A stretch of DNA of 64,000 nt, taken from assembly GCF_044647545.1 (NCBI RefSeq), contig NZ_CP172818.1; one strand, written 5' to 3'. The notes beneath the pieces were generated by a model that did not search any database, was not told the origin of the DNA, and saw nothing but the letters and a program-made list of their open reading frames with translations. Positions within the stretch are counted from its first letter, which is position 1, and each line of letters begins with the position of its first letter. Shown here in pieces: positions 5,338 through 64,000 of the stretch. Source of the stretch: Escherichia coli (lineage in GTDB: Bacteria; Pseudomonadota; Gammaproteobacteria; Enterobacterales; Enterobacteriaceae). The position numbers were made by a program, and so were the translations under genes.

Positions 5338-5654
5338 TTTCCTGCTAACCATTCACCACTCAACAACCAGCTAACCGTCAGGAATACCAGGCTTAGTACA
5401 CAGCACTGAAAGTAGAAACCACTCCAGCCATTCGTCATCAATTTAAACAACACAATACTGACCCACATTCCCGTAATCGTATGAATTGTCAGCTTAATAA
5501 TCCCAAACATGCCGAGTCTTTTCCTCCTGAAAATACCTATACCGCCTGGCAAACTGCGAAAGAGAACTAGCCGGTAGCCCGGCAGAAATCATCAGGGAAG
5601 AGTTTCACATGAAGCAGGTGTGAGATCCTGACCAATATTCAAATGCAAAATATG

Positions 5655-6383
5655 TCAGGAAAAGGTACCTGGCGAATGTTGCGCAAACTGATGTGGCGTT
5701 ACACCATAATATTGTCGAAATGTGTTTATAAAGTACGACGTACTGCTATAGCCACATTTTTCCGCAATAGTATGCAGAGGAATTTGACGTAACTCGAGTA
5801 ATCGTCTGGCCATCGACATCCTGGAGGCGAGTAATATTTTACTGAAACAGGTATTTTCATCCTGCAACTTTTTTTTGATGAGACTCTCGCTGGTATACAT
5901 TCTTTCCGCAATATCGCGCAGATACCAACGTTTGGCGATATCAAAGCTAATAAGGCGTTCAACTTTTCCTGAAACAGTACTGATACTATTGAAAAGTAAG
6001 GGGATCAGTTCTTTCTTATGAGAAAACATCGATAAACAGGAAAGATAGAGCATTTTGCTCAATATCGGCGAATTTACCCCGGAGTCATTGAAACTATCAA
6101 AAATCGCCGTCACCAGCGGCATGGGGGGTGACTGGTTAATTAACAGACGGTCTTTGCTATGTAACCCTAAATTGCGTGGTATCTGACGAATATTTTGTAA
6201 GTAATGGCAAACTGTCAGCTCATCGATATCCAGTCGTCGTGTATCCGGTGAACAAAACGCAAAATCGTCTGCCAAATTTTTATCCAGTAACAGGATACTC
6301 TCGTTATGCAACGATATTTTTTGCTGTTCATGATGAATATCGAATGAACGACGAACGAGGATCACCGAGCAGACATGAGTCAT
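5655..6383 (-). CDS. gadW: GadW, AraC-family regulator of the gad system (242 aa)
   Basis: 242-aa ORF with C-terminal AraC-type HTH; located downstream of gadX on the minus strand. Confidence 0.92.
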   Translation of the reverse strand: MTHVCSVILVRRSFDIHHEQQKISLHNESILLLDKNLADDFAFCSPDTRRLDIDELTVCHYLQNIRQIPRNLGLHSKDRLLINQSPPMPLVTAIFDSFNDSGVNSPILSKMLYLSCLSMFSHKKELIPLLFNSISTVSGKVERLISFDIAKRWYLRDIAERMYTSESLIKKKLQDENTCFSKILLASRMSMARRLLELRQIPLHTIAEKCGYSSTSYFINTFRQYYGVTPHQFAQHSPGTFS

Positions 6384-6629
6384 GACTATCCCTTATATTT
6401 CATTGCTGCGATTATTTCAATTTCAGTATACTAATGAAATGATGCCTGACTGTTTCTTAGCGCAAAAACTGCCAGATTTGGTAGGACCAAAATTTATCCA
6501 CAAAGTAGTTTTGCATAACAGTTAATTGATAATAAGTAAATGCAACACGAATATATTTTCGCACAGCGTATAGCTTATGTTTATAAAAAAATGGCTGATC
6601 TTATTTCCAGTAAAAGTTATATTTAACTT

Positions 6630-6735
6630 ACTGAGAGCACAAAGTTTCCCGTGCCAACAGGGAGTGTTATAACGGTTTATTAGTCTGGAGACGGCAGACT
6701 ATCCTCTTCCCGGTCCCCTATGCCGGGTTTTTTTT
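6630..6735 (+). ncRNA. gadY: GadY small RNA, antisense to the gadX 3' UTR
   Basis: Plus-strand sequence actgagagcacaaagtttcccgtgccaacagggagtg... ending in hairpin cccggtcccctatgccggg plus T9, in the gadX-gadW intergenic region opposite to gadX. Matches my recollection of GadY; the 5' end is approximate. Confidence 0.7.
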
Positions 6736-6751
6736 ATGTCTGAGTAAAACT

Positions 6752-7576
6752 CTATAATCTTATTCCTTCCGCAGAACGGTCAGTGCCGTAAAAATTCCCT
6801 TGCGCAGCCATACTTGCCGCCGGGCCACAGTTCGGTAATTCCTGCGCCGATCGCTCCTGATACTCTGTGGGCGTCATCCCATAATAATTTCGAAAAACGT
6901 AAATGAAATACGACACGCTGTGATATCCACAGGATACTGCAACTCGCTTAATTGAAACCCCATATATAACAATAAGTTGTAAAGCACGCTGCATCCTACA
7001 CTCAGTAAGCAACTGTGAATATGACGTACCTTCTTCGCGCAATTTTTTCTTTAACAGGCTTGGACTCATCAACAATTCGCTAGCGATTCGGGCTAATGTC
7101 CACTCATGGGCGATATTATTATTGATGACCGTACAAACTCGTGTTCGCATATTCGGTTGCAACACGTTCAGAAGTAACGGTATAAACTGCGTATCCTCAA
7201 GAAAAACAGATAACAACGCAAAGATTAATGCCCTTTTACGTAGCATTTCTGCATAGCGAAGATTCTTATTCTGCGACAGTTGCGCAACTTCCTGAAAAAC
7301 AGGAATATCTCTGGTACAGTGATGAACGAGTAATGAAGGAACTTTTTTATGTGCATGAAGTTTTAATGCCTCCTCCTTGAGCATCGGGAGAAATAATGAA
7401 AGCGTGTCTCTTGAAACTAATACGAAATTCTCAACACACTTATCCACTTGAATTTGGCTTGCATCCGCAAAAACCAGATCACCGCCATTAAAATAGCGAT
7501 ATTCACCATTAACCATGGTGAGAATATATTTATGTCTTGCGTACGCAATTAGACAATTACCATGTAGTGGTTGCAT
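6752..7576 (-). CDS. gadX: GadX, AraC-family activator of gadA/gadBC (274 aa)
   Basis: 274-aa ORF with AraC-type HTH C-terminus; immediately downstream of gadA on the minus strand. Confidence 0.93.
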   Translation of the reverse strand: MQPLHGNCLIAYARHKYILTMVNGEYRYFNGGDLVFADASQIQVDKCVENFVLVSRDTLSLFLPMLKEEALKLHAHKKVPSLLVHHCTRDIPVFQEVAQLSQNKNLRYAEMLRKRALIFALLSVFLEDTQFIPLLLNVLQPNMRTRVCTVINNNIAHEWTLARIASELLMSPSLLKKKLREEGTSYSQLLTECRMQRALQLIVIYGVSIKRVAVSCGYHSVSYFIYVFRNYYGMTPTEYQERSAQELPNCGPAASMAAQGNFYGTDRSAEGIRL

Positions 7577-7944
7577 AGTTGACTTAATATTACATAAACA
7601 TATTACTGTTTATTAATGTAGCACGCCGCCCTCTTAAGTCAAATTGATTGATAAATAAATTTAAACGAAGCGGGAGAACAGGATGATAATGTGTGATGTT
7701 CTACGGGCAGGATGACTGGATTTATAATACAAAAACGTGTTTAAGAACGCAGGGAAATTAATAGTAAGCAAATAATCCCTTTTCGTTACATTAAATATAA
7801 TCGCTACATTTAATAAACATTCATATAACATATATCTTATCAACACGATGAATAGACAGCCAATATATTATTGCGATTAATAAGCAACCGAATGCCCAGC
7901 TGTTTTTTAAAGGTTGGGCATTCGGTTTTTACAACGTTATGTTA

Positions 7945-9345
7945 TCAGGTATGTTTAAAGCTGTTCTGCTGGGCAATACCCTGCAGTTTCGGGTGGTCGC
8001 TGAGATATTTCAGGGAGGCTTTGTAGTCTTCCAGCAACAGTTCAGCAAAGTCCATTTCGAAGCCGCGACGACACATAATGCGCATCACCACGATGTCAGT
8101 GGCTTCACCGCCGAGAGTGAAGGCCGGAACCTGCCAGCCGCGCAGACGCAGACGTTCAGAGAGGTCGTAGAGGGTGTATCCTGGATCTTCACCATCTTTC
8201 AGTTTGAAGCAAACCGCCGGGATGCCTTCGTCCGGGCGACCGGTACAGATGAACTCATACGGCCCCAGTTTGGCGATTTCATCCGCCAGATAAGCGGCAA
8301 CCTGGTAGGAAGCGTTCTGTACTTTGGTATAGCCTTCACGACCGAGGCGCAGGAATTCATAGTACTGTGCAATCACCTGACCCGCCGGGCGGGAGAAGTT
8401 GATGGCGAAAGTACCAATCTGACCGCCGAGGTAGTCAACGTTGAACACCAGTTCCTGCGGCAGCGCTTCTTCATCACGCCAGATAACCCAGCCGCAGCCC
8501 AGCGGAGCCAGACCGAATTTATGGCCTGAAGCACTGATCGATTTCACACGCGGCAGGCGGAAGTCCCAGACGATATCCGGGGCGACGAACGGTGCCAGGA
8601 AGCCACCGCTGGCGGCGTCGATGTGCATGTCGATGTCGATACCGGTGTCGGCCTGGAATTTATCCAGCGCATCGTGCAGCGGCTGCGGGAACTCATAGTT
8701 ACCGGTGTAGGTCACGCCGAAAGTCGGCACCACGCCGATGGTATTTTCGTCGCAGGCTTCAATCATGCGTTTCGGGTCCATAAACAACTGACCGGGGCGC
8801 ATAGGGATCTCACGCAACTCCACATCCCAGTAGCGGGCGAATTTATGCCAGCAGATTTGTACCGGACCGCACACCAGGTTTGGTTTATCCGTTGGTTTGC
8901 CTGCGGCTTCCATACGCTTGCGCCAACGCCATTTCATCGCCATCCCGCCGAGCATACAGGCCTCGGAAGAACCAATGGTGTTGGTGCCAACGGCCTGACC
9001 ATTTTTCGGTGCAGGCGCATGCCACAGATCGGCAACCATGTTTACGCAACGCAGGTCGATTGCAGCGGATTGCGGATATTCTTCTTTGTCGATCCAGTTT
9101 TTATTGATCGACAAATCCATCAATTTATGGACGTTTTCGTCGTCCCAGGTCTGGCAGAAAGTGGCCAGGTTCTGACGAGCGTTGCCATCAAGATATAATT
9201 CATCATTGATAATCTGAAATGCAACATCATCGCGCATTTCGTGCAGCGGAAATCGTTTTGACTCCGCGATAGTAGAAATGGCCTTTGCACCAAAACGTGA
9301 ATCGAGTAGTTCTGAGCGGAAATCCGTTAACAGCTTCTGGTCCAT
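7945..9345 (-). CDS. gadA: Glutamate decarboxylase alpha, PLP-dependent (466 aa)
   Basis: ORF 7945..9408 contains the canonical Gad N-terminus [21 protein letters not shown] from the ATG at 9343-9345 and a C-terminus ending ...SFKHT. Called gadA rather than gadB because of the adjacent gadX. Confidence 0.93.
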
Positions 9346-9424
9346 TTCGAACTCCTTAAATTTATTTGAAGGCAATAAAAAAGTAGGATTTATCCGCAAT
9401 GGAAGCAAGGCATTACAGGCTTAA

Positions 9425-9444
9425 TTTAAATAACAAAATCCTAA
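9425..9444 (-). promoter_or_regulatory. GAD box (GadE/RcsB binding site) upstream of gadA
   Basis: Minus-strand sequence TTAGGATTTTGTTATTTAAA, about 80-100 bp upstream of the gadA ATG; matches the 20-bp GAD box consensus as I recall it. Confidence 0.7.
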
Positions 9445-9555
9445 GCAGAAAAACGACCTTTTATAATATAAACATTTAATATGATAATATTAAAAACAGA
9501 CTTTATTATCGTAATAAAAATCGCCCAAACACTCCTGTTCGGGCGATCAAATTAA

Positions 9556-10953
9556 TTATTGTTTATCCTGCATATACGGCGTGTAAACCCCGTTCAGACT
9601 GTGCAGGAAAGCTACGATATCATCCACATCCTCCTGCGGCAGCTCTTTGCCTACCTGATAGCGCAGCATCAGTTTCACCGCCCCGTCCAGCGTCGGCACG
9701 TCACCGCGATGGAAGTACGGTGCCGTTAAAGCAACGTTACGTAAACCGGGTACTTTCTGACGCAATTTATCACGCTCTTCTTTAGTAACATTCATACGAC
9801 CAATATCCGCCGCCGTAATTTCACCAAAGTTAAAGTCTTTTTTCAGCCCCAACGGTTCAAAGGAACGTCCGCCGAGAATAATACCACCATGACAAGTTGC
9901 ACATTTATTATCTTTAAATAATTGATAGCCTTTTTTCTGTTGCGCCGTCAGAGCATTCTCATCTCCACGCAACCATTTATCAAATGGGGAATCCGGCGTA
10001 ATTAATGTTTTCTCAAATTCAGCAATGGCATCAGTAATATTTTCGCCACTGAAACCTTGCGGATAGACTTCGAGGAACTGCGCTTTAAGCTGCGGATCTT
10101 TTTCCAGCTTAGCAATAATTTCGTCCCAGGATTTCGACGCCATTTCAATCGGGTTCAACGGCGGTCCACCAGCCTGATCCTGCAATGTTGCCGCACGACC
10201 ATCCCAGAACTGCTCAACGTTAAATACTGAGTTAAATACCGTCGGCGCGTTAATCGGCCCCACTGCGCCACCAACACCAATCGATGTTTTTCTGCCATCG
10301 ACGCCCCCCGCATTCAACGCATGGCAATGAGCGCATGAAATGGTGCTATCAGCCGATAAACGGGGATCGTGATACAGCGCAAAACCCAACGCCACTTTTT
10401 GCGCATCGGTAGGCAGTTTTTGCGGGATGGGCTGCACCGGTTCATTGCGATGCTCCGGAGCAGTATCATTGCTGGCGTAATATTCCGCGCGCTGTTTTGC
10501 AATCCAGGCCAGTATTTCCGCCCGCTCTTCATCACTCACCTTACCCGCCCAGTGTAGCGCGGTATAACGCGTTGGCGGCATAGTTTCATACTGCATCACC
10601 CATTCAATCTTATTCAGATCGCTTTGCGAAACGGGTTTATTAGCCAGCAGAGCCGCACGCACGGCCTCGAGGTTAAAAGATTTATATCCAAGCTTTATGT
10701 CGTAATCCATCAACTGTTTCGCGCCGGGAATATAATAATAGGCGGGTAATTCTGCCGAAGGTGTATGGCAATAGTCGCATCCTTTTTCACGGAGAAAGCC
10801 TAAAACCTTATTATTTTCACTGACAGCAGATGCCTGAACATCGGCCTGTTTACTGCGTTTATTATCGTGGTACCACACATAACCAGATAACCCTAAATAG
10901 CAAATCGCGACGCCAGCCAGGCCGATCGCGGTAATACGTGAGACCATTTTCAT
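9556..10953 (-). CDS. yhjA: Di-haem cytochrome c peroxidase YhjA/Ccp (465 aa)
   Basis: N-terminal membrane anchor and CxxCH haem-binding motifs (CDYCH, CAHCH, CATCH) are visible in the translation. Confidence 0.9.
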   Translation of the reverse strand: MKMVSRITAIGLAGVAICYLGLSGYVWYHDNKRSKQADVQASAVSENNKVLGFLREKGCDYCHTPSAELPAYYYIPGAKQLMDYDIKLGYKSFNLEAVRAALLANKPVSQSDLNKIEWVMQYETMPPTRYTALHWAGKVSDEERAEILAWIAKQRAEYYASNDTAPEHRNEPVQPIPQKLPTDAQKVALGFALYHDPRLSADSTISCAHCHALNAGGVDGRKTSIGVGGAVGPINAPTVFNSVFNVEQFWDGRAATLQDQAGGPPLNPIEMASKSWDEIIAKLEKDPQLKAQFLEVYPQGFSGENITDAIAEFEKTLITPDSPFDKWLRGDENALTAQQKKGYQLFKDNKCATCHGGIILGGRSFEPLGLKKDFNFGEITAADIGRMNVTKEERDKLRQKVPGLRNVALTAPYFHRGDVPTLDGAVKLMLRYQVGKELPQEDVDDIVAFLHSLNGVYTPYMQDKQ

Positions 10954-15127: not shown

Positions 15128-16141
15128 ATGACGCAGGAAAACGAGATCAAACGTCCCACCCAGGATCTGGAGCACGAGCCGATTAAGCAGTTGGATAATA
15201 GCGAGAAAGGCGGCAAAGTTAGCCAGGCGCTGGAAACCGTCACCACTACTGCCGAGAAAGTCCAACGCCAACCGGTTATTGCGCACCTGATTCGCGCAAC
15301 AGAGCGCTTTAACGATCGGCTGGGTAACCAGTTTGGTGCGGCTATCACCTATTTCTCATTTTTGTCGATGATCCCGATTTTGATGGTGTCGTTTGCCGCA
15401 GGGGGCTTTGTGCTGGCCTCCCATCCGATGTTGCTACAGGATATCTTCGACAAAATTCTGCAAAACATCAGCGATCCGACGCTAGCCGCCACGTTGAAAA
15501 ACACCATCAACACCGCCGTTCAGCAGCGTACTACCGTAGGGCTTGTCGGCCTGGCGGTGGCGCTTTATTCCGGCATCAACTGGATGGGTAACCTGCGTGA
15601 AGCGATTCGCGCCCAGTCACGCGATGTCTGGGAACGCTCGCCGCAAGATCAGGAGAAGTTCTGGGTAAAATATCTGCGTGATTTTATTTCGCTGATTGGT
15701 TTGTTGATTGCGCTGATTGTGACGCTTTCGATCACCTCGGTTGCCGGTTCGGCGCAGCAAATGATTATTAGCGCCCTGCACCTGAACAGCATTGAGTGGC
15801 TGAAACCGACGTGGCGGTTGATTGGCCTGGCGATTTCCATCTTCGCCAACTATCTGCTTTTCTTCTGGATCTTCTGGCGCTTGCCGCGCCACCGTCCGCG
15901 CAAAAAAGCCCTGATTCGCGGAACATTTCTGGCTGCGATTGGTTTTGAAGTGATTAAAATCGTGATGACCTACACCCTGCCATCGCTGATGAAATCCCCC
16001 TCTGGCGCAGCATTTGGTTCCGTGCTGGGGCTGATGGCGTTTTTCTACTTCTTCGCCCGTTTGACGCTGTTTTGCGCGGCGTGGATTGCCACCGCCGAAT
16101 ATAAAGACGACCCGCGAATGCCGGGGAAAACGCAGCGGTAA
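15128..16141 (+). CDS. yhjD: Inner-membrane protein YhjD (YihY/virulence-factor BrkB family), 337 aa
   Basis: 337-aa polytopic membrane protein directly after yhjC. Confidence 0.88.
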   Translation: MTQENEIKRPTQDLEHEPIKQLDNSEKGGKVSQALETVTTTAEKVQRQPVIAHLIRATERFNDRLGNQFGAAITYFSFLSMIPILMVSFAAGGFVLASHPMLLQDIFDKILQNISDPTLAATLKNTINTAVQQRTTVGLVGLAVALYSGINWMGNLREAIRAQSRDVWERSPQDQEKFWVKYLRDFISLIGLLIALIVTLSITSVAGSAQQMIISALHLNSIEWLKPTWRLIGLAISIFANYLLFFWIFWRLPRHRPRKKALIRGTFLAAIGFEVIKIVMTYTLPSLMKSPSGAAFGSVLGLMAFFYFFARLTLFCAAWIATAEYKDDPRMPGKTQR

Positions 16142-16530
16142 TTCAATGATAATCCTGATTTAAACGCCTATACGGTACGATCATCCCCTCGCCCCTTCGT
16201 GGAGAGGATTAGTGATACAAGCCAGCCAGAGACCAGGCAACGACATGCACATAACCACCTGAAACTACATCTCTTCAGGAGCAAACAATTTCATACCAAC
16301 TCATAACCCCAGCATATAAATCCAGTTGGTAACTTTTATTTAACCTGAAACCAGTTTTATCCACTATTTATAAAATTATGTGAAGCATTTCATAGAAGAA
16401 AAATCACTGGCCTAAACATTATCCCCTTTTTGCCTGGTTTTTGACCATTTCCGCGATTTGTTACACATTGAAATATCACTTTTGCTGTGCGTAATATGGC
16501 TATTCGTTAGCCAAAAAATAAGAAAAGATT

Positions 16531-41826: not shown

Positions 41827-41875
41827 ATAGCCGCCTGAGTTGTAATGACAACGTTTCGCGGCTATTCTTGAGTGG

Positions 41876-41941
41876 TCTAGAGTCAAGATTAGCCCCCGTG
41901 ATGTTGTCAGGTGCATACCTGCAACGTGCGGGGGTTTTCTC
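41876..41941 (+). ncRNA. rdlD: RdlD antisense RNA (type I antitoxin of ldrD); approximate coordinates
   Basis: Plus-strand segment opposite the ldrD leader ending in hairpin cccccg...cgggggttttct; position inferred from the known ldr/rdl arrangement, ends not verified. Confidence 0.5.
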
Positions 41942-47529: not shown

Positions 47530-47679
47530 AACCCGGATTCTCTATAATGACCCGCAGCCTGGAACTGCGTGTCTGTATTGCTCACAAATCAATTCCCGCC
47601 TTTGTGGGACAGGGAATGAAGTATTGCTGCCGGATGGCGCTGCACGCAGAGGCACAGCGCCACCGGGTATGGCTTTTAA

Positions 47680-49287: not shown

Positions 49288-49860
49288 TATTCTGCTCCAA
49301 TTGTGATGTTTGTTGTTTTAACCCTTTGCAGTGGGTTGTCGCCGCCTGACCTTTTTTGTTTTTTGCCCGGTCGGGTCAACGTTATGAGGTGGGGATGCCG
49401 TACTAATTAACATCAGTGTAACAGTGCGGATCCTCCAGAAAATGCCCCTCGTGACCTACAATCTGTCAACAGAATGTGAAAACGTCAATACAGCCAACCG
49501 GGATTTACACCAACGGTGAGAATCAACAAACAAAGATTAAAAAAACTTCAAACAGCTATTTGCAGCAGAGAAATTTGTGCTACGCCAACACAACCAGAAC
49601 AATCAGCTTAATATTTAGCAACATTTGGTGATTAAGTTTTATGCATTTAATGAAAAAAATCTGAGGTAAAGGTGGATATCTGAGCGATTAATACCATGAA
49701 CGCTAAAACGCACAGGGGAAAATGCCAGCGCCAGCCATAAGTAACGCAAAAAAAGATTTAAGCAAATATAAAAAAAGACAATGGTTTCTGTCACAAATCC
49801 GTTAATGGATAGTGAGATATGGGGCGCAAATTTGGCAGGGAAATGTGTGGTGTGTAGATC

Positions 49861-49937
49861 GGATAAGGCGGTCGCGCCGCATCCGACAATGGGCCGGTAC
49901 ATTTGCCTGATGCGACGCTGACGCGCCTTATCAGGCC
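49861..49937. repeat. REP/BIME cluster upstream of dppA
   Basis: ggataaggcggtcgcgccgcatccgac and gcctgatgcgacgctgacgcgccttatcaggcc are REP-type palindromic units. Confidence 0.7.
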
Positions 49938-50149
49938 TGCATCGAGTCGAACCTCCTTGTCCCCCGATAAGACCGGTATTTCAATCACCACATGAGACTT
50001 CAGACGCATACAAGCTCTGCATCAATTAGCATGCTAATTTCGCCTTTGCAGTGACAGCTGATATACACGTGCTTCTGGCCAGCCCTGCGGCCTTTAACAG
50101 GTCAGACTGGCAGTGTCCGCACCTCAGGTTCTGGATGACTTTCGCTTTT

Positions 50150-50690
50150 TCTCCAGCTCCAGGCCCTTTTTTTCCAGGAGATGCTCCTGCATGGCTTTCA
50201 GATATTCATTTTTGGGCGGAAAATACGCGGGTCTTTTTTTCTCTCTTTCCGGGTTCTGTTTTCCTCGTTTTTATGGGTGTCATCAAAAAGGGGTTTGCTT
50301 TTCTCCTTCCTGCGCCTTAAAAAGGCCTCATCACCAGATTTTTTGGTTCCTTTTTTCCCATTTTTTAACCGGTTTTGGGTGGGGAAGTTTAAACCGGGGG
50401 GCGCCCGGGGGAGAGACACAATAACCGAGAGGATAAAAAAACACGCAAAGTTTTTTTTTTGGAGAAAAGAGCGCTGGTGTGTGTGTACAATGGTGTGAGA
50501 GGGGGGAGGAGAAAAAAAAAAAATATAGTGTGGGAGGGGGGGGTGTGAAAGAGGTAATATTGTTGTGGTAGAGAAGATATGACGACATGAGGGGAGGTGA
50601 TGTTTTATGGGGGGGTGTTTTTTTTAATATATGTGTGTTATATACTGTGCTTTTAGATGTGAGATAATGTTTGATATATGGGCAGTTCAT
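50150..50690. other. Anomalous low-complexity block (homopolymers T9-T10, A12-13, G8; (TG)n; near C-free stretch) between dppA and proK
   Basis: Directly visible composition anomaly: tttttttttt, aaaaaaaaaaaaa, gggggggg and gtgtgtgtgt runs, open in nearly all six frames with no protein-like ORF. Nature unknown; artefact suspected. Confidence 0.6.
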
Positions 50691-50697
50691 GGCGCGT

Positions 50698-50727
50698 CTT
50701 ATCAGGCCTACGTCGAATCGAACCTCC
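50698..50727. repeat. 30-bp REP-like direct repeat, 27/30 identical to 49927-49956, bracketing the anomalous block
   Basis: cttatcaggcctacgtcgaatcgaacctcc versus cttatcaggcctgcatcgagtcgaacctcc at 49927-49956. Confidence 0.6.
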
Positions 50728-50765
50728 CCGCCCCCGGGGGTTCTCTTCCTCATGAGCTACAGATG

Positions 50766-62788: not shown

Positions 62789-62867
62789 TCCCAGCCTCCT
62801 GTGTTGATTTCCACCGAGTATGTACTGCACCCATTTTGTTGGACGATGAAATGGAATAGCCCCTGAT

Positions 62868-63389
62868 ATGTCAAAGCCAAAATACCCTTTTGAAAAGCGC
62901 CTTGAAGTCGTGAATCACTACTTCACTACTGATGATGGTTACAGGATCATCTCGGCACGTTTTGGTGTCCCCCGAACCCAGGTCAGGACATGGGTTGCCC
63001 TCTATGAAAAACATGGAGAAAAAGGTTTAATTCCCAAACCTAAAGGTGTTAGTGCTGATCCAGAGTTGCGTATTAAGGTCGTGAAAGCTGTGATCGAGCA
63101 GCACATGTCCCTTAATCAGGCTGCTGCTCACTTTATGCTTGCTGGTAGTGGTTCTGTAGCCAGGTGGCTGAAGGTTTATGAAGAGCGCGGAGAAGCTGGT
63201 TTACGCGCGCTCAAGATTGGCACCAAAAGAAACATTGCAATATCAGTTGATCCAGAAAAAGCGGCATCAGCATTGGAGCTGTCAAAAGACCGACGTATTG
63301 AGGATCTTGAAAGGCAAGTTCGATTTCTTGAAACGCGGCTTATGTATCTAAAAAAGCTGAAAGCCTTAGCTCATCCCACGAAAAAGTGA
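62868..63389 (+). CDS. insJ: IS150 OrfA / InsJ, HTH DNA-binding transposase subunit (173 aa)
   Basis: 173-aa ORF MSKPKYPFEKRLEVVNHYF... with IS3-family OrfA HTH and leucine-zipper region. Confidence 0.92.
   Translation: MSKPKYPFEKRLEVVNHYFTTDDGYRIISARFGVPRTQVRTWVALYEKHGEKGLIPKPKGVSADPELRIKVVKAVIEQHMSLNQAAAHFMLAGSGSVARWLKVYEERGEAGLRALKIGTKRNIAISVDPEKAASALELSKDRRIEDLERQVRFLETRLMYLKKLKALAHPTKK
63350..63356 (+). other. Programmed -1 ribosomal frameshift slippery heptamer A_AAA_AAG of IS150
   Basis: ctaAAAAAAGctg near the end of orfA; the -1 frame is open from upstream of this site and continues into the DDE transposase. Confidence 0.75.
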
Positions 63390-64000
63390 AAGTACTCAAC
63401 GAGCTAAGGCAGTTTTATCCTCTTGATGAGCTTCTCAGGGCTGCGGAGATACCGCGCAGTACGTTTTATTACCATCTAAAGGCTCTCAGCAAGCCTGACA
63501 AGTATGCGGACGTTAAAAAGCGTATTGGTGAGATTTATCACGAGAATAGAGGCCGATACGGATACCGTAGGGTAACGCTGTCTCTTCATCGAGAAGGGAA
63601 ACAGATTAACCATAAAGCTGTTCAGCGCCTGATGGGAACCCTCTCACTTAAAGCAGCGATTAAGGTCAAGCGATACCGCTCTTACAGAGGAGAGGTAGGG
63701 CAAACCGCCCCTAATGTTCTCCAAAGAGATTTCAAGGCTACGCGGCCAAACGAGAAGTGGGTTACCGATGTTACTGAATTTGCAGTCAATGGGCGCAAGC
63801 TGTATTTGTCTCCAGTAATAGATCTCTTCAACAACGAAGTTATTTCTTACAGCCTTTCGGAAAGACCAGTGATGAACATGGTTGAGAATATGCTCGATCA
63901 GGCATTCAAAAAGCTTAATCCTCACGAGCATCCTGTTCTGCACTCTGACCAGGGATGGCAGTATCGTATGAGAAAATATCAAAATATTCTTAAAGAACAT
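63386..64000 (+). CDS. insK: IS150 OrfB / InsK, DDE transposase catalytic domain (partial, continues beyond window)
   Basis: Manual translation in the -1 frame gives [33 protein letters not shown]...KWVTDVTEF...HSDQGWQY with no stop before the window end; absent from the ORF track because the stop lies outside. Confidence 0.85.

Follow-up and report, generated by a model that had tools for sequence, protein, structure and literature searches.

A K-12-like gadY antisense RNA gene and gadA GAD box in the acid fitness island of an Escherichia coli genome

GadY is a small RNA described in three forms that measure 105, 90 and 59 nt and share one 3′ end (PMC3050690), and the literature reports that its build-up takes place in stationary phase and at acid pH in an RpoS-dependent manner. 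GadY overlaps the 3′ end of the gadX mRNA by at least 30 nt, and its pairing with the gadX 3′ UTR stabilises the gadX mRNA (PMC3050690) and raises GadX (PMC10057817; PMC3050690). PMC10783499, citing Opdyke 2011, states that the gadXW mRNA is cleaved by RNase III in a GadY-dependent manner; the same paper is inconsistent on the nuclease, which is RNase E in the running text and RNase III where a figure legend names it. Many antisense RNAs in the literature act on 5′ regions and lower expression, whereas GadY pairs with the 3′ UTR or intercistronic region and raises its target. By analogy, GadY may be likened to the cis-antisense RNAs that are processed with RNase III (PMC9600491, for example AsflhD/flhD), which share with it full complementarity to the target and hence a long perfect duplex that could serve as an RNase III substrate.

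The transcription of both gadY and gadA has been studied. The gadY promoter is described as RpoS- and activator-dependent (PMC10057817; PMC3050690), AppY binds to it (PMC10057817), and control of the divergent gadY-gadW promoters by GadX and GadW is credited to Tramonti 2008 in PMC4918353. At K-12 gadA, footprinting, gel shift and lacZ fusions demonstrated that RcsB and GadE bind as a heterodimer to the GAD box and that the box is needed for gadA activation (PMC2887963). In the same study, 16 bp separate the GAD box from the −35 hexamer downstream of it, the box is centred 63 bp upstream of the transcription start, RcsB/GadE protection runs from −50 to −76, and the gadA model shows a GadXW box further upstream than the GAD box. 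A region within the 17-nt spacer between the −35 and −10 hexamers has been described as the RcsB box. The GAD box is printed as TTAGGAttTTgTTATTTAAa in PMC4918353, and the published consensus for GadX/GadW is AKGKCTGWTWTTWWYMYVAK (PMC4918353).

We compared these systems with the corresponding locus in a 64,000-nucleotide stretch of an Escherichia coli genome (contig NZ_CP172818.1), which we call the window. Its collinear counterpart in K-12, at 97–98% identity, is 3658236-3721812, and the genes mdtF - gadW - gadY - gadX - gadA - ccp stand in the same order as in the acid fitness island of K-12. The spacer of interest and the protein-coding genes around it are as follows.

5655..6383, minus strand: gadW coding sequence, 242 aa, an AraC-family regulator and the downstream gene of the gadX-gadW co-transcript
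6384..6751: gadW-gadX intergenic spacer, 368 bp (the K-12 counterpart has 367 bp)
6752..7576, minus strand: gadX coding sequence, 274 aa, an AraC-family activator whose 3′ UTR is the GadY target
7945..9345, minus strand: coding sequence of gadA, for glutamate decarboxylase A (466 aa), a protein identical to K-12 GadA

The names gadW and gadX are taken from the annotation of genomes that are 100% identical over window positions 5600-9600, in which gadA and ccp follow, and the K-12 MG1655 annotation has gadW and gadX in the same order with the ncRNA gadY (b4452) between them. On the minus strand, the gadW start codon is the ATG at 6381-6383 and the gadX stop codon the TAG at 6752-6754, and the spacer is exactly what lies between the two. 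All three genes gadW, gadX and gadA are full-length and contain zero internal stop codons, and together with the K-12 gene order this bears out an earlier description of the acid-fitness-island architecture as intact. Rearrangement or decay of the locus with respect to K-12 was considered and rejected, given the collinearity of the window and the intact gad genes. GadW differs from its K-12 counterpart at 6 of 242 amino acids and GadX at 18 of 274, with a DNA divergence of ~6% across gadX. Seven of the GadX differences are bunched at residues 246-257, in the C-terminal tail. Six small open reading frames of 26–69 aa (five of them 26–47 aa) overlap the spacer, the 69-aa frame at 6176-6385 making only edge contact with it, and no supporting evidence was found for any of these six.

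A first-pass annotation, made from the sequence without database searches, had assigned the plus strand of the 368-bp spacer a GadY-like sequence that ends in a strong terminator. We found that GadY takes up only the right-hand 106 bp of the spacer, the remainder (6384-6629) being the gadW-proximal part and the gadY promoter.

6630..6735, plus strand: gadY, a small RNA gene in its full-length form (105/106 nt), lying antisense to the 3′ UTR of gadX and matching K-12 b4452 exactly
6709..6735, plus strand: intrinsic terminator of GadY, with a 6-bp stem (5 G-C pairs) and a 7-nt loop at 6709-6727, then T8 at 6728-6735

The whole window was scanned with Rfam at gathering thresholds. The GadY family (RF00122) matches positions 6627-6740 on the plus strand with 150 bits, far above its gathering score of 45 (E = 8.3e-32), and the match is full-length (model positions 1-114 of 114), all modelled base pairs being standard (zero non-standard pairs). 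Moreover, the 106-nt gadY of K-12 MG1655 (b4452) occurs in the window as an exact string, with 106/106 bases in agreement. The hairpin of the terminator, CCCGGTCCCCTATGCCGGG, is present at 6709-6727 as the first-pass annotation had it; its T9 run is actually T8, which is the sole factual slip in that account.

The likeness to K-12 GadY (b4452; RF00122) extends from the 106 nt themselves to the promoter-proximal 84 bp, the terminator, the position, the orientation and the three-stem-loop consensus. Alignment to K-12 finds gadY, its promoter and its terminator 100% identical and no difference within the gene, while the changes outside it number five in the gadW-proximal spacer (4 substitutions and one 1-bp indel, every one of them at or before 6545). 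From 6546 to 6806 there are zero differences, a stretch that takes in gadY with its promoter and terminator, as well as the final ~55 nt of gadX. The divergent gadX coding allele sets in ~70 nt past the GadY 3′ end, with 9 substitutions at 6807-6841 directly after the invariant stretch.

The predicted fold of 6630-6735 has three stem-loops, the same as in the Rfam consensus. Its energy is not unusual (−28.6 kcal/mol, z = −0.73), and 42 of 200 shuffled sequences equal or exceed its stability. On thermodynamic grounds alone GadY would have gone unnoticed, and its identification is grounded in homology and context. We put at about 97% the probability that this is the canonical gadY of the E. coli acid fitness island, set in a K-12-like architecture that is predicted to work as in K-12. 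Nothing that contradicts the gadY identification was found in the analysis. Both gadY and the GAD box of gadA were already known; they are in their usual place, agree with K-12 base for base and offer nothing new.

The sequence in front of gadY contains a candidate −10 hexamer and one of two similar GadX/GadW-like sites.

6618..6623, plus strand: candidate gadY −10 hexamer TATATT, occupying −12 to −7 when counted from the annotated 5′ end (6630), assigned by eye and identical to K-12
6591..6610, plus strand: sequence resembling a GadX/GadW box, ATGGCTGATCTTATTTCCAG, which overlaps the gadY promoter in its −35 region, with 2 mismatches to the consensus
9484..9503, minus strand: sequence resembling a GadX/GadW box, AAGTCTGTTTTTAATATTAT, located upstream of the gadA GAD box, with 2 mismatches to the consensus

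A generic sigma-70 scan of 6300-6850 did not report the gadY promoter, because no good −35 hexamer is present. The scan's single hit, at 6370-6399, was set aside as unrelated to gadY and as no more than chance would give (one hit, 1.3 expected). The two GadX/GadW-box-like sequences tie as the best matches to the published consensus in the window, where the consensus has 5 matches in total, a number not above chance (2.7 expected). We therefore take these two sites, one in the gadY promoter and the other in front of gadA, as agreeing with the literature and not as independent proof. From the identity of the promoter region to K-12, we infer that gadY would be expressed in the host strain.

The 3′ end of GadY, at 6735, is 16 nt short of the gadX stop codon, which confirms the reported overlap with the gadX 3′ UTR on the opposite strand. 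All of GadY falls downstream of the gadX stop codon, and therefore the RNA has perfect complementarity to the 3′ UTR of gadX and to the gadX-gadW intercistronic RNA. A terminator scan of both strands of 6300-6850 yielded the GadY terminator as its single site and none on the minus strand between gadX and gadW. Read on the minus strand, the GadY hairpin is followed by AAGAGGATAG and has no T-run, and thus it should not terminate gadX transcription. The absence of a minus-strand terminator fits the published co-transcript of gadX and gadW, with transcription reading through into gadW.

Several steps would connect this arrangement to an increase in GadX. A plus-strand unit of ~105 nt would be independently transcribed, with the candidate −10 at 6618-6623, a 5′ end at 6630 and a terminator end at 6735; given the shared 3′ end at 6735, the 90- and 59-nt forms of GadY would start near 6646 and 6677. 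According to the literature, GadY would pair with the gadX-gadW transcript, the duplex would be cut with RNase III taking part, and the split gadX and gadW mRNAs would be more stable, leading to more GadX. Hfq binding by GadY and the RNase III-dependent processing of the gadX-gadW mRNA that it directs are carried over from the K-12 literature and may apply here by analogy. Alternatively, GadY could do nothing but mask the 3′ end of the gadX mRNA from 3′-to-5′ exonucleases, as in the original 2004 model, and endonucleolytic processing of the co-transcript would then not be the relevant step. Secondary sources state a plain stabilisation of the gadX mRNA through 3′-end pairing (PMC10057817; PMC3050690), which agrees with masking, but the region between gadX and gadW is free of minus-strand intrinsic terminators and fits a read-through co-transcript; we judge it distinctly unlikely that masking is all that GadY does. 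The masking and processing models share one pairing and are not mutually exclusive.

We characterized the conservation of the locus across the species by comparing four 152-bp probes with 5,426 complete E. coli genomes.

6384..6535: gadW-proximal spacer probe, at least 99% identity in 143 of 5413 genomes
6600..6751: gadY probe, including part of the promoter and 16 nt downstream, at least 99% identity in 5367 of 5412 genomes
6800..6951: adjacent gadX coding probe, at least 99% identity in 1302 of 5411 genomes and 90–95% identity in 3926
9346..9497: gadA upstream probe, at least 99% identity in 749 of 5412 genomes

At the level of at least 99% identity, the gadY patch is found in 99% of complete genomes, compared to 3–24% for the equal-sized neighbouring patches. 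The gadY patch is the most conserved part of the locus and hence the most constrained, a descriptive result that fits the known biology of GadY. The probe in adjacent gadX splits into two allele classes over its 5411 genomes. The invariant block of ~260 bp (6546-6806) is flanked by this two-class gadX coding region on one side and by the variable gadW-proximal spacer on the other.

These frequencies also bear on the proposal that the gadY locus is silent here, a conserved relic whose regulatory inputs have been changed by the divergent gadX and gadW alleles. The 18 of 274 GadX residues and 6 of 242 GadW residues that differ from K-12, along with the 5 differences in the gadW-proximal spacer, would be in keeping with such a loss of inputs. 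However, the gadY promoter, gene and terminator are those of K-12, the coding sequences are all intact, and the gadX allele class is a normal one, present in about a quarter of complete genomes (1302/5411 at ≥99% identity). A silent locus lacks support and is highly improbable, and the preferred reading is that of a K-12-like gadY predicted to be at work. With an intact GadY/GadX/GadW/GadA module, glutamate-dependent acid resistance should be regulated in this strain as in K-12.

The source of the conservation can be interpreted in more than one way. Conservation of 6546-6806 could come from DNA-level constraints and not from selection on RNA-RNA pairing, considering that a GadX/GadW-box-like site overlaps the gadY promoter and that further inputs and roles have been reported, including AppY at the gadY promoter, the titration of CsrA by GadY and its promotion of biofilm formation (PMC10057817), and SdiA-related roles. 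Binding sites would explain why the promoter (~6585-6629) is conserved, but not why the 106-nt transcribed region in its entirety and the 3′ end of gadX are, and we regard DNA-level constraint as an unlikely origin of the entire block. The pairing is cis-antisense and its complementarity is automatic; consequently, covariation adds no information, and sequence data do not separate DNA-level from RNA-level constraints.

Selection on GadY/gadX pairing would be only one part of the picture if the invariant block marked something more, for example a recombination boundary kept by selection on the double-stranded RNA substrate, or extra trans roles of GadY that have fixed its sequence species-wide. 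We hold such an additional function to be unlikely, a speculative suggestion that goes beyond the conservation contrast shown here.

Upstream of gadA, the minus strand carries the GAD box followed by the core promoter.

9425..9444, minus strand: GAD box TTAGGATTTTGTTATTTAAA, 20 bp with 0 mismatches, the published RcsB/GadE heterodimer site for gadA activation
9380..9408, minus strand: gadA core promoter, with −35 TTGCTT at 9408-9403, a 17-nt spacer and −10 TACTTT at 9385-9380

The true start of gadA is the ATG at 9345. An open reading frame called with a TTG start at 9408 was rejected as the start of gadA, being an upstream extension of it. Read along the minus strand, the GAD box (9444-9425) is followed by 16 nt, TTGCTT, 17 nt, TACTTT, 34 nt and the ATG. 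The first-pass annotation had located the GAD box at these very coordinates, and we found it there as an exact sequence that is unique in the window: TTAGGATTTTGTTATTTAAA has a single match in the 64 kb even when 3 mismatches are allowed, and a match was found in 0 of 100 dinucleotide-preserving shuffles. Significant matches were thus obtained for both of the elements that had been named, GadY and the GAD box.

The geometry agrees with the published one (PMC2887963), with a 16-nt gap to the −35 hexamer and a box centre at 9434.5, which is 62.5 nt from 9372. Based on the published centring figure of 63 bp, the gadA transcription start would be at ~9372. From the GAD box to the gadA ATG, the sequence is identical to K-12. 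The K-12 gadA promoter has the same 20 bp, the same 16-nt distance, the same −35 and −10 hexamers and the same sequence through the ATG, and the differences, 5 substitutions, are all further upstream, towards ccp: 2 lie between the GadX/GadW-box-like sequence at 9484-9503 and the GAD box, and 3 lie beyond 9484-9503, two of these near the ccp end. The RcsB/GadE heterodimer would be expected to bind the intact GAD box and to activate gadA as in K-12. A degenerate GadE motif from ChIP-exo, TTARGAWWWWAAATA, had 4 matches in the window with up to 2 mismatches (2.4 expected), none of them at gadA; the motif as printed fails to recover the canonical box, and so only the 20-bp literal sequence was used.

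RefSeq automated annotation of near-identical genomes has no feature under gadY, and an Rfam-based pass would add the gene. The same Rfam scan returned an ES205 small RNA match at 776-847 (105 bits, cut-off 86), downstream of gadE, which collinearity with K-12 would place at ~131-658 of the window. By the same collinearity, the ES205 match corresponds to the 3′ part of the K-12 ncRNA gadF (b4718, 3658992-3659082), so that a second acid-island small RNA is present and intact. Further along, the rdlD antitoxin RNA at 41875-41940 on the plus strand (88 bits, cut-off 50) marks the ldrD/rdlD type I toxin-antitoxin locus in the position expected from K-12. The remaining Rfam matches are those expected for the region, namely naRNA4 (REP-type), tRNA-Pro and the cspA thermoregulator.

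The window departs from K-12 at a few other places. Between yhjD and yhjE, ~130 bp (16136-16268) are left unaligned to K-12 by megablast, and at 47667-47670 the window is without ~154 bp that K-12 has between dppB and dppA (3705931-3706085). A truncated IS3-family element occupies ~49965-50690, between dppA and the tRNA-Pro gene proK. Strain FDAARGOS_497 agrees with the window over both flanks at 100% identity and carries at this place an intact IS3-family element, ~770 bp of which are missing from the window. The stretch ~50205-50685 has only ~65–70% identity to the IS3-family element, with an abrupt return to 100% at ~50686, and no complete E. coli genome matches it above 81%. Its substitutions create homopolymers (T10, A12, G8) and GT repeats and bring C down to 12%, and 7 of the window's 24 homopolymers of at least 7 bases fall within these 481 bp. 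Such a pattern probably stems from faulty base calling, or from misassembly at a repeat, in the source record and not from natural decay.

A 46-nt direct repeat, 83% identical between its two copies (49919-49964 and 50690-50735), brackets the IS remnant. The left copy overlaps a REP-type Rfam match, naRNA4 at 49857-49937, and the remnant thus appears to lie inside or adjacent to REP-like sequence. At the far end of the window (~62821-64000), collinearity with K-12 runs through hokA/sokA into IS150 (K-12 3720633-3722075) in one continuous BLAST alignment; judging from this alignment, IS150 appears to be at the same site as in K-12, with the element cut by the window end.
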